Assembly (NCBI GenBank): GCA_020137815.1
Contig: CM035351.1
Coordinates: 7,378,001 to 7,442,000, forward strand
Source: Hormiphora californensis
Lineage: Eukaryota > Animalia > Ctenophora
Reading direction: 5' to 3'
DNA length: 64,000 nucleotides
This document shows, piece after piece, positions 13,733 to 22,185 of the stretch. Under the pieces are notes generated by a model, which did no database searches, was not told the origin of the DNA, and was given only the letters and a program-made list of their open reading frames with translations. Made by a program: the position numbers and the translations under genes. Numbering within the stretch: the first letter of the stretch is position 1; each line of letters starts with the position of its first letter.

Positions 13733-13786
13733 ATGTCTGACGTTCGAGCAAAGAAGTCTGGTCTGAGTGCTGACATCCAGAAAAAG
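13733..13786 (+). CDS. Alternative start exon 1a ([18 protein letters not shown])
   Basis: Acceptor ctcttag|cc immediately before the ATG. Phase-0 donor AAG|GTACGT. Confidence 0.85.
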
Positions 13787-19700: not shown

Positions 19701-22185
19701 TGATGAGACCCTCGCTGCTGGGAAATCTGTCCTTGGTGGCCAGATGGGCTTCACTGGTGGCGACAGTCAGTCTGGCATGTCCATGGGCAAGACAAGGAAG
19801 GTCTGCGATTAAATATGGAGCACGCGATGATAGTTGTGCAGCCACGATATCTTTTATAGGGTACCCGAGGAAGTATGGAGTATAATTATATCTAGGTCTT
19901 TAAATACGCATTTCGAGAGTTTATAATATCCACGTTTAGTGGATTTTCTTATATGTGTACAATTTTTATCTGCAGCAATTGTTTGGGAAACCTGTTGTGC
20001 GGTTTTTTCGTAAAACAAAGTCCATTCGTTTTATTTCACCAGCTTTTTATCCCATGAAATTTACCGTGTTTTGTTTAGCTTCTCAATTCCCAAAATTGCT
20101 CTCAACAACAAACAAACCATGCCAGCCGTTTAACAAGCAATAACTAAACGTTTAGGTACGAAACAACGTTGCCCATTTGCATATCAAGACACTTACGATC
20201 GAATCAATACAAATAACAGTCTAGTGAAGACACATTTTAGAGCAAATCTCCAAATTCATAGGCCTGCAGCCTCTACCATAAGCTGGTAGCCAACTATGGT
20301 ACCAGGGATCCAGCATTGGTAAGATAGCCAGGATGAATGTTCGAGAGTTGACTAGCGAATCAACCCTGTAAGGCGTACTGGTGGTCAAACTGTTGGAACC
20401 AAGGCGCCACTTTGCGTTTGACATGGAACCCGTTTTTGGGTTTAAAAAAATTGCTTCAAATTCGCCACTTTTTTGGGTCATTTTTCGTCTATTTTCTGTG
20501 AACTTTTGTCGATATTGAGCCATGAAACCGGGATTTGCTAACGAATTTCACACGAACGGCTCGGTTAAGTCCAAGAGTAATCCCAACCAGCGTTAAACCA
20601 AATTTGGATCATAATAAGGTACCTTAATTGGTCAATAATTGGCCTTTCGGCGGCGGGTATTTCGAGATATTGAAAATTGGCCCTAATTCCGCAACCAAAC
20701 AGGTAGCGGCAAAACTAATACCAGTTTTTCTCTTTCAAATTAACTAATTAACTCGGTAGTACCGTCAGTTTGATTCAGGGGGTTGCATAGCGTGGTGTAT
20801 AGCCTCAGTCCCGATCATTGTGGAACGACCTAATATTTAGGTCTTTAAATACGCATTTATAATTCCCGTGTGAGTGGATTTTCTTTTTGTGTAACAATTT
20901 ATCTGCAGCAATATGTATTGGGAAACATCACATGTGTGTGCGAGTTTTTTTCGTTAAAAAGCAAATTACATTTTCGTTTGTTTTCACCAAAGCTTTTAAT
21001 CCCATGAAATTTGCCGTGTTTTATTGGTTTTCTTTTCAATTCTGCACAAAATTGCTTACTCAACAAGCACACAACAAACCATGCCAGCCTGTTTAAACAA
21101 GCATAATAAACACCGTTTAGGTACGAAACAAACGTAGCAGCCCATCTTGCATATACAAGACCAACTTACAGATCGAATCACATACAAATAACAAGTCTAG
21201 TGAAGCACACATTTTAGAGCACTACTACATCCATCAATATCTATAGGTCCTAGGCAACCTCTACCAACTAAGCTCGGTAGCCAGCACTAGTGGGTACCAG
21301 GGTGCCAGCATTGGAGTGAAGATAGCCACGGAGAATGTTCGAGAGTTTGACGAGGCGACGATAAACGCCGGTAAGGCGGTACTGGGTGGTCAAACTGGTT
21401 GGAACCAAGGCGCCACTCAGGCGGGAATGAACATCGGGAACACCCGTCATATCGTTGATTAGATTGAATCAGTTGCTTGGGGGCGTTCCCATGGCAAGAT
21501 TATTAGTCAGGAACGCTAGCAGCATATCAGAGAGCTTAACCAAAATAAACAAAGACATTTATTATGCATGATTCTAGTATATTTAAATAAAAAGTGATAA
21601 AAATGTGATCAGAACTAATTGACGTGTAATCGTAAATGGTTGAAATAGTAAAGACCACATTTATTAGGAAATTAGGAATAAGCATCAAACATCGATATTT
21701 TGACTAAAGCAAGAGTGTTTAGTTTTTCTATGTACGTTTTTCAACCAACTGAATTTATTTGATTTTTCTATGCAAAAAAATGCCGATTTTTACTAAAAGA
21801 AATAAATGTAAATGAAATCTCGTTGCCAAAAGAGCTCAGCCATCACAATAAATGTCCAACAATCCAATATTCACTCGTTGAGTAAGTCACCCGTTACTCA
21901 GCAAATATCCATATGGTCTAGCATCTAGCATCTCGGAGCCTGCAACGTTAACCATGTGGCCGTCCTAAGGTCATTGGAACCCTCTACGCTTTGAGTTCAG
22001 TTGCGAGTACCAACGGCTACCAGGGACCGAGTATAGGTGTCAAGATCGCTGAAGAGAATGTTCGAGAGTTCGATGAAGCCACCCTGAATGCTGGGAAGTC
22101 TATTCTTGGCGGGCAGATGGGGTGGACCGAGGGAGCCACGCAATCTGGAATGAACATTGGAAACTGCCGGCATATCGTGGATTAG
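13733..22185 (+). CDS. TAGLN: Transgelin/calponin (myophilin/Mp20-like) gene: CH domain plus one calponin repeat, with alternative start and last exons
   Basis: Constant exons 16131-16270 ([23 protein letters not shown]...LKDGTILC), 16519-16588 (LINALSP...KMAFKQ) and 17381-17485 ([11 protein letters not shown]...[16 protein letters not shown]). All are GT-AG and frame-compatible. C-terminal [16 protein letters not shown] calponin repeat. The symbol denotes the family, not orthology. Confidence 0.93.
15673..15848 (+). repeat. 44-bp minisatellite, 4 copies, abutting exon 1b
   Basis: Unit tatatagccaccacgtacatctctagccacgtccctctaataac. The first copy is 2 bp shorter. Confidence 0.9.
15851..15904 (+). 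CDS. Alternative start exon 1b ([18 protein letters not shown])
   Basis: Same 54-nt coding length as exon 1a and clearly paralogous. Phase-0 donor AAG|GTAACA. Confidence 0.88.
16599..16927 (+). repeat. 12-bp tandem repeat (cacactgacaaa)n in intron
   Basis: About 27 near-perfect copies. Confidence 0.95.
18400..18654 (+). repeat. 37-bp minisatellite, ~6.5 copies, upstream of exon 5a
   Basis: Unit aaatgtgagctgactgcgtgtggttaccatggtgatg. Confidence 0.92.
18699..18914 (+). CDS. Alternative last exon 5a
   Basis: tctatcag|GTG, 216 nt, [10 protein letters not shown]...[26 protein letters not shown]. Confidence 0.92.
19032..19247 (+). CDS. Alternative last exon 5b
   Basis: cacctag|GTT, 216 nt, [10 protein letters not shown]...[32 protein letters not shown] at 19494. 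Confidence 0.9.
19594..19812 (+). CDS. Alternative last exon 5c
   Basis: ttattcag|GTT, 219 nt, [24 protein letters not shown]...[26 protein letters not shown]. This frame is absent from the ORF track. Confidence 0.9.
   Translation, partial: VVGTLYACSTIATSKHGYSGMCIGTKLADENVRDFDDETLAAGKSVLGGQMGFTGGDSQSGMSMGKTRKVCD
20255..20411 (+). pseudogene. Degenerate, deletion-riddled copy of exon 5d (or assembly artefact)
   Basis: Colinear with 21240-21417 but with many 1-2 nt deletions. Part of a duplication of ~19890-20411 versus ~20838-21417. Confidence 0.7.
21247..21462 (+). CDS. Alternative last exon 5d
   Basis: tctatag|GTC, 216 nt, [10 protein letters not shown]...[32 protein letters not shown] at 21544. 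Confidence 0.9.
   Translation, partial: VLGNLYQLSSVASTSGYQGASIGVKIATENVREFDEATINAGKAVLGGQTGWNQGATQAGMNIGNTRHIVD
21970..22185 (+). CDS. Alternative last exon 5e
   Basis: cctaag|GTC, 216 nt, [10 protein letters not shown]...[32 protein letters not shown] at 22472. Confidence 0.9.
   Translation, partial: VIGTLYALSSVASTNGYQGPSIGVKIAEENVREFDEATLNAGKSILGGQMGWTEGATQSGMNIGNCRHIVD

Follow-up and report, generated by a model that had tools for sequence, protein, structure and literature searches.

Swapping of protein ends through tandem duplicated exons is known from tropomyosins. In the human events of tandem duplicated exon substitution covered by the sections of PMC9741552 used here, 77 of 236 swap C-termini and 40 swap N-termini, and human TPM1, C. 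elegans lev-11 and Drosophila Tm1 each have three tandem 3' exons and an alternative N-terminus. A transgelin contains a CH domain, an actin-binding site and a single CLIK motif. The parts of a review consulted (PMC10285543) state that high-affinity actin binding by these proteins requires several C-terminal sites and that the family is diversified by three vertebrate genes or, in invertebrates, by varied CLIK numbers. In this study, we analyzed a 64,000-nucleotide (nt) stretch of the ctenophore Hormiphora californensis (GCA_020137815.1, contig CM035351.1, positions 7,378,001 to 7,442,000, forward strand), referred to as the window, and found a transgelin (myophilin) gene at window positions 13733 to 22185. 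We propose that this one gene joins a shared CH core to one of five tandem last exons and to either of two starts, likely giving cell types different actin-binding tails. We give this reading a probability of about 0.8. The architecture in itself, with alternative starts, a constant core and alternative ends, is close to certain.

All exons of the gene lie on the forward strand. Start exon 1a (coding part 13733-13786) and its paralogue 1b (coding part 15851-15904) precede the core, and each has an ATG, a GT donor and 18 coded amino acids (aa). The shared exons 2 (16131-16270), 3 (16519-16588) and 4 (17381-17485) encode the CH domain and end at a single phase-0 donor at 17485. The last exons are located at 18699-18914 (5a), 19032-19247 (5b), 19594-19812 (5c), 21247-21462 (5d) and 21970-22185 (5e, with an AAG acceptor). 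They are 216, 216, 219, 216 and 216 nt long; each opens behind AG with GTN (Val) in phase 0 and closes with Asp and a stop codon. Since every last exon ends in a stop, one tail is coded per mRNA. The ten exons have GT donors and AG acceptors. The initial annotation was made from the sequence alone, and its exon coordinates, tail lengths, exon boundaries and pair of paralogous start exons were correct to the base. Its claim of a single CH-exon set was borne out within the window by tblastn with two isoforms as queries. When translated by coordinates, 10 of 10 start and tail combinations gave an open frame of 195-196 aa. The tails share 32-57 of 71-72 residues in pairs (45-80%), more than chance would give, and 5d and 5e are identical at 57 of 71. 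As had been stated, the tails are strongly diverged in DNA with their frames open and lengths kept, the tail-to-tail proportion of synonymous differences (pS) being 0.63-0.92.

The five tails are tandem homologous last exons in the same phase with one common splice partner, the arrangement that defines tandem duplicated exon substitution. The gene resembles tropomyosin, as far as PMC9741552 describes it in the sections used, in that an actin-filament protein obtains its C-termini from tandem homologous 3' exons and has a homologous alternative N-terminal exon. It differs in having five tails where tropomyosin has three, and in belonging to a different family. The transgelin swap also exchanges the final helix of a globular CH domain along with the entire actin-binding tail (37% of the protein), and the gene has a trans-spliced leader on one start and one tail within the 3' untranslated region (UTR) of another. 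The initial annotation had compared the array to Dscam and myosin heavy chain. Dscam contains an internal cluster of mutually exclusive exons. The likeness holds insofar as tandem duplicated exons are used one per mRNA, and the cluster, an exon pair, predicted in the Mnemiopsis Mhc2 myosin gene, in the part of PMC3912159 that concerns it, is a precedent in a ctenophore muscle-type gene. The analogy fails in that those clusters are internal cassettes needing an exclusion mechanism, whereas the transgelin tails are terminal exons with stops and are exclusive by construction. None of the five needs a donor of its own to a common downstream coding exon.

Splicing was examined in assembled RNA contigs from mixed marine samples, with four of eight listed runs compared (X1, X2, X3 and X5). 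Seven joints were listed: exon 1a to 2 (two runs), 2 to 3 (three runs), 3 to 4 (three runs), 4 to 5a (two runs), 4 to 5d (three runs), 4 to 5e (one run) and one from 17406 to 19189. The run with the 4-5e joint was guessed to be RNA, yet the joint has GT..AG ends. Among contigs with core pieces lacking any difference from the window, that of run X1 continued to 5d and that of run X2 to 5a. Splicing in RNA thus involves several of the alternatives: three of five tail joints were seen, and both start types are documented by these runs and, for 1b, by a protein, P0001. Of the predicted junctions from 17485, those to 18699, 21247 and 21970 were observed, and those to 19032 and 19594 had no joint in the four runs; of the two predicted to 16131, the joint from 13786 was observed and that from 15904 was absent from the runs. 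Use of only one terminal junction had been named beforehand as an outcome that would count against the array, and it was not what the runs contained. Exons 5b and 5c were covered by RNA contigs though jointless, 5c at 19609-19927 in one of four runs. The proposal of up to ten isoforms stands as an upper bound.

Protein P0001, encoded by a 927-nt contig, opens with the 1b peptide and continues into the core and 5a. It is the nearest protein and differs by three residues, counted by eye, from the 1b-core-5a product of the window. It falls into one cluster with a gene model of Pleurobrachia bachei, and the next named matches come from Mnemiopsis leidyi and Bolinopsis microptera, which points to a Pleurobrachia-like ctenophore. 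In one RNA contig, the exon 1a transcript starts at 13713 behind an AG at 13711-13712, and the nine loose letters before 13711 together with this AG are identical to the 3' terminus of the spliced leader of Hormiphora as printed in the relevant passage of PMC8527503. Exon 1a receives the leader at this trans-splice acceptor. The 9-mer occurs at only four sites of the window, all beyond 54 kb; a cis-spliced upstream exon was rejected as its source, because the window holds no upstream copy. We also scanned metagenomes and obtained 52 loci from 177 stretches, 11 of which are ctenophore-type transcripts. One of these, L005, has the leader ahead of a 1a-type start, the sole such 5' motif among the 52 loci. 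The 1b-type transcripts L002 and L003 have 5' UTRs of 169 and 58 nt without a leader motif, which may fit a separate 1b promoter, but truncation is possible. Exon 1b probably has its own promoter. Within the intron that precedes 1b, one run gave low RNA cover at 14440-14560 and 15242-15548, close to a pyrimidine-rich tract that closes with CAG before GT at 14514; this cover may come from a first exon of 1b transcripts that is non-coding, or from repeats. Minisatellites of 44-nt units (15661-15848), 12-nt units (16599-16927) and 37-nt units (18399-18657) lie directly 5' of exon 1b, directly 3' of exon 3 and directly 5' of exon 5a, respectively, and the P. bachei model P0119 has an apparently shorter 44-nt array ahead of 1b.

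We next compared the gene across ctenophores, splitting retrieved proteins at both exon boundaries into start, core and tail. For other species, the isoforms are known from annotations and assembled transcripts and not from single molecules. The B. microptera myophilin-like isoforms X1-X7 and M. leidyi gene ACHWQZ_G011078 represent the orthologous gene with two starts, one core and several tails. In Bolinopsis, isoforms X1-X4, X6 and X7 (X5 was not retrieved) share one exactly identical core, on which both start types and four different tails occur, two of the tails with both starts. The Mnemiopsis gene has three proteins with both start types and two tails. Lobates have more 5c-like tails than the window gene, as known here from automated annotations. 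When proteins were grouped by exact core, 9 of 25 groups had at least two truly different tails and 5 of 25 had both start types; a tenth two-tail group consisted of one tail plus an extension, and some group counts include allelic variants. Other ctenophores have 5c-class tails joined to cores. A profile search started from 5b-5e brought no new ctenophore-type protein to the top among the best 120 of 1567 matches.

A tree was built from 31 tails (5 from the window, 22 picked from 42 and 4 from the scanned loci) over 73 columns. It separated 5a/5b-like from 5c/5d/5e-like tails with support 100/99, and placed 5b in a group with five tails from other species (support 98/98). The five window tails were rejected as a single clade (p-AU 2e-7, from the approximately unbiased test); the group was named after a first tree had been seen. 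Because of the tree split, the tail duplications are placed before the separation of Pleurobrachia and the lobates. In a 52-row tree, five non-ctenophore tails fell on the 5a/5b side with long branches; a sixth outgroup did not match the pattern applied and was left out. The acidic tail class looks derived, though the root is uncertain. By these comparisons, the tandem terminal-exon design is ancient and has been kept across ctenophore species. Four divergent ctenophore-type transgelins of 202 aa (P0036 and P0146-P0148) have 5c-class tails on differing cores and may represent a paralogous second gene or a distant lineage.

The initial annotation had proposed the ratio of nonsynonymous to synonymous substitution rates (dN/dS) among 5a-5e as a check. 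Comparison among the five paralogous tails was uninformative because dS was saturated: 6 of 10 pairs were not computable or exceeded 2.5, and the ratio of nonsynonymous to synonymous proportions (pN/pS) was 0.12-0.54. Therefore, orthologue pairs were used, and these showed selection on the tails. Between the window and transcript L001, dN/dS was 0.038 for 5a and 0.046 for 5b, and it was 0.088 for the exon at the 5b position between L003 and L013. A ratio of about 1, also named beforehand as counting against the array, was not found. Among 40 of the 46 RNA differences, 14 of 15 in tail exons were synonymous (binomial p ~1e-8 at 23% synonymous sites), with 3 of 4 in 5a, 5 of 5 in 5b, 2 of 2 in 5c, 4 of 4 in 5d and none listed for 5e. 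The RNA contigs may derive from other populations or sibling species. Both 5b and 5c look selected despite their missing joints.

The initial annotation had also foreseen that several complete paralogous genes might have been merged in assembly into one core with five tails. A probable local assembly error is indeed present at 19888-20411 (forward strand), which aligns as a frameshifted partial duplicate of 20833-21417, the intron and most of 5d. The two copies share 487 matches with 19 substitutions, and there are 54 gaps in the first copy versus 9 in the second. We infer from this gap-rich pattern an unpolished noisy read more than slow decay, and the stretch is likely an assembly artefact, or else a dead copy. 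In two runs, loose RNA contig ends, compared by eye, connected the beginning of the first copy to the second, as if the animals had one copy of the 5d region. The stretch was rejected as a functional sixth tail. It leaves the five intact exons unaffected and marks a locally imperfect assembly. Between the two copies lies a 419-nt stretch (20412-20830) that occurs once in the window and is possibly an insertion on one haplotype. A collapse of whole genes is extremely improbable, because RNA is continuous from 5a into 5b and the same core DNA occurs with different tails, even though these tails are near synonymous saturation. In addition, two annotations, on contigs of 20.9 Mb and 23.0 Mb, are single genes with identical cores.

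Exon 5b lies inside the 3' UTR of the 5a mRNA. The 117-nt spacer between them (18915-19031) has no AATAAA or ATTAAA by signal scan and is retained in the 5a mRNA, being crossed by RNA contigs in all four runs; transcript L001 is continuous across 18696-19434. Among the ctenophore transcripts, all ten of the 5a type, which represent about four lineages, contain a further tail exon, also intact, 113-915 nt downstream within the 3' UTR. These embedded exons lie behind an AG and start with Val, and nine of ten reach a stop while one runs off its contig. The intervening spacers contain AATAAA in 1 of 10 and ATTAAA in 4 of 10. Purifying selection acts on the embedded exon, and its intact presence within the 5a mRNA across ctenophore lineages is a new observation. 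The simplest reading is that 5b offers a distal acceptor which competes with that of 5a on a common 3' end, and that its isoform tends to be lost by assemblers. Addition of the leader directly to 5b, giving a short peptide, was rejected because the first Met is unconserved and such a peptide would lack the conserved N-terminal helix.

Several observations weigh against the proposed use of all starts and tails. The four RNA runs contained no joint leading into 5b or 5c and none leaving 1b, though missing cover or joints in contigs do not prove absence. The strict 5b motif was found in 0 of 53 ctenophore-type proteins with the exon-4 end, and only 5b-related tails (Bolinopsis X6, P0013 and P0060) were found on a core; in the L004 lineage, the embedded exon fell outside the 5b group in the tree. 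Among the metagenome-scan loci, no ctenophore genomic locus was recognised and none had a core joined to strict 5b. The joint from 17406 to 19189 was discarded, as it has AG..CC ends, comes from one contig at depth 4.8 and fits no exon. Contigs from mixed samples cannot pair a start with an end on one molecule, and annotation pipelines can invent exon combinations. The argument from charge to function, given below, is one of inference.

One explanation for the missing joints is that 5b rides unspliced in the 5a 3' UTR as a passenger, or that 5b and 5c are seldom-used leftovers. The absence of the strict 5b motif on any core, the presence of the embedded exon within 5a mRNA in all ten transcripts and the weak, CA-rich pyrimidine tract at the 5b acceptor would fit this. 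Neutral leftovers would not be expected to show the low dN/dS at the 5b position in two species pairs (0.05 and 0.09), to retain the AG, the Val start and the full frame in four lineages, and to do so without a start codon of their own at the conserved 5' end. Assemblers would be expected to drop a short-cut isoform that is contained within a longer one, and the 5c-class tails are found on cores in other ctenophores. This explanation is thus very unlikely. In the proposed reading of one gene with five usable tails, splicing from the core to 5a, 5d and 5e is seen and splicing to 5b and 5c is likely, and the choice of tail would depend jointly on which acceptor and which poly(A) site are used. 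A motif scan placed candidate AATAAA signals at 19494 (past 5b), 21105 (past 5c), 21544 and 21586 (past 5d) and 22472 (past 5e), all on the forward strand. Exons 5c, 5d and 5e each have their own candidate signal, and 5a and 5b would be rival acceptors on a common 3' end.

The protein is typical of the family in its domains. A single N-terminal CH domain was detected (PF00307, residues 26-136, 82.4 bits), and each tail has one stretch of calponin repeat (PF00402), four of five beyond the curated cut-off. The scores for 5a-5e were 45 (45.3 for 5a), 40, 18, 31 and 27 bits, with 5c weakest at 17.9 versus a cut-off of 21.1. The isoforms terminate right past this repeat, with no further repeat or variable acidic extension. 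The best of 16 PDB matches was transgelin-2 (alignment residues 16-135). The exon 4/5 boundary (residue 123/124) falls inside the last CH-domain helix according to the Pfam extent, the transgelin-2 alignment and an AlphaFold model, so each swapped exon also supplies that helix; 5a, for example, contains the final CH helix, the candidate actin-binding-site region and the calponin repeat. The model was weak, with a mean predicted local distance difference test (pLDDT) score of 58.8 and a tail below 50, and was used for helix 121-137 only. With one CH domain, a candidate actin-binding-site region, one CLIK repeat and about 195 aa, the gene product resembles transgelin, SM22, myophilin and mp20 as portrayed in the consulted parts of PMC10285543. 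It departs from the known transgelins described there in that diversity arises by exon choice in one gene and includes an acidic tail class.

The tails differ in charge. The candidate actin-binding-site region, which aligns with calponin-2 up to residue 155, is basic in 5a, neutral in 5b and acidic in 5c-5e. The net charges of tails 5a-5e are +4, +3, -1, -1 and -3, and the computed full-length isoelectric point (pI) is 7.5-8.5 with 5a or 5b and 5.2-5.8 with 5c, 5d or 5e. The actin surface is acidic. The basic 5a and 5b stand near ordinary transgelins. For the acidic 5c, 5d and 5e, whose repeat is more divergent, the prediction is weaker binding to acidic F-actin or binding to other partners. 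We lean slightly towards a model in which basic isoforms bind actin tighter, acidic ones bind weaker or otherwise, and cell types differ in their use. The architecture could also be real with tails that are nearly equivalent, each last exon persisting for its own 3' UTR (stability, localisation or level) and the protein changes being tolerated drift. The separate candidate poly(A) signals of 5c, 5d and 5e, the close identity of 5d and 5e and the variation of tail number and subtype among lineages are compatible with this. We consider it unlikely, since the basic/acidic split is old and retained across lineages, charge and repeat score differ consistently, and 5a and 5b are both conserved on a common 3' region.

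A wider model would be a phylum-wide exon code of two starts by N tails, through which one gene came to hold the ctenophore set of transgelin/calponin-type thin-filament regulators and in which basic and ctenophore-specific acidic tails are assigned to different muscle and non-muscle cells, with the leader marking one start and an exon hidden in a 3' UTR, in animals whose muscle is possibly independent. We put this forward tentatively, at somewhat less than an even chance. The mechanism class of tandem duplicated terminal exons is already known. The initial annotation knew of no such description for this family: no paper on this locus or on transgelin tail-exon arrays was found in the consulted parts of the open-access literature, which does not extend to subscription journals or supplements, but the isoforms are implicit in public automated annotations of Bolinopsis and Mnemiopsis. 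The terms 'ctenophor' and 'alternative splicing' are absent from the searched main text of the PMC10285543 review, and term look-up in the accessible text of PMC13749725 (a 2026 ctenophore muscle paper), PMC5167519 and PMC8527503 gave no such description.

The remainder of the window contains other features. On the minus strand, a stop-to-stop frame of 340 aa at 22568-23590 contains a kringle domain and ends less than 100 nt past the last 5e candidate poly(A) signal, as a tail-to-tail neighbour. A minus-strand frame at 24978-25538 matches the papain family (Peptidase_C1) and possibly belongs to the same gene as the kringle exon, an unusual pairing. A retrotransposon of the long interspersed nuclear element (LINE) type occupies 30439-34588 on the plus strand, with endonuclease and reverse transcriptase in one frame and RNase H in an overlapping second frame. 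A mitochondrial carrier protein exon or gene lies at 45151-45756 (minus strand), and minus-strand open frames of 602 and 316 aa at 40259-42067 and 61583-62533 have no Pfam match.

The shared origin of ctenophore and other-animal muscle is an open question. Gene-level single-cell counts would merge the transgelin isoforms into one entry. The initial annotation had suggested 3'-tag usage per cell type as a test; as RNA runs from 5a through 5b, such data are likely unable to separate these two, so the test would likely fail for that pair. Exons 5c, 5d and 5e should be legible in 3'-tag data, and 5a versus 5b requires junction or long reads. If the tails are cell-type specific, the locus would provide markers and a biochemical handle for ctenophore contractile cell types. 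Five tails on an identical CH core would form a natural series for the residues that set transgelin actin affinity. Tandem terminal-exon swapping would thereby be extended to a family for which the searched portions of the literature describe gene duplication only.

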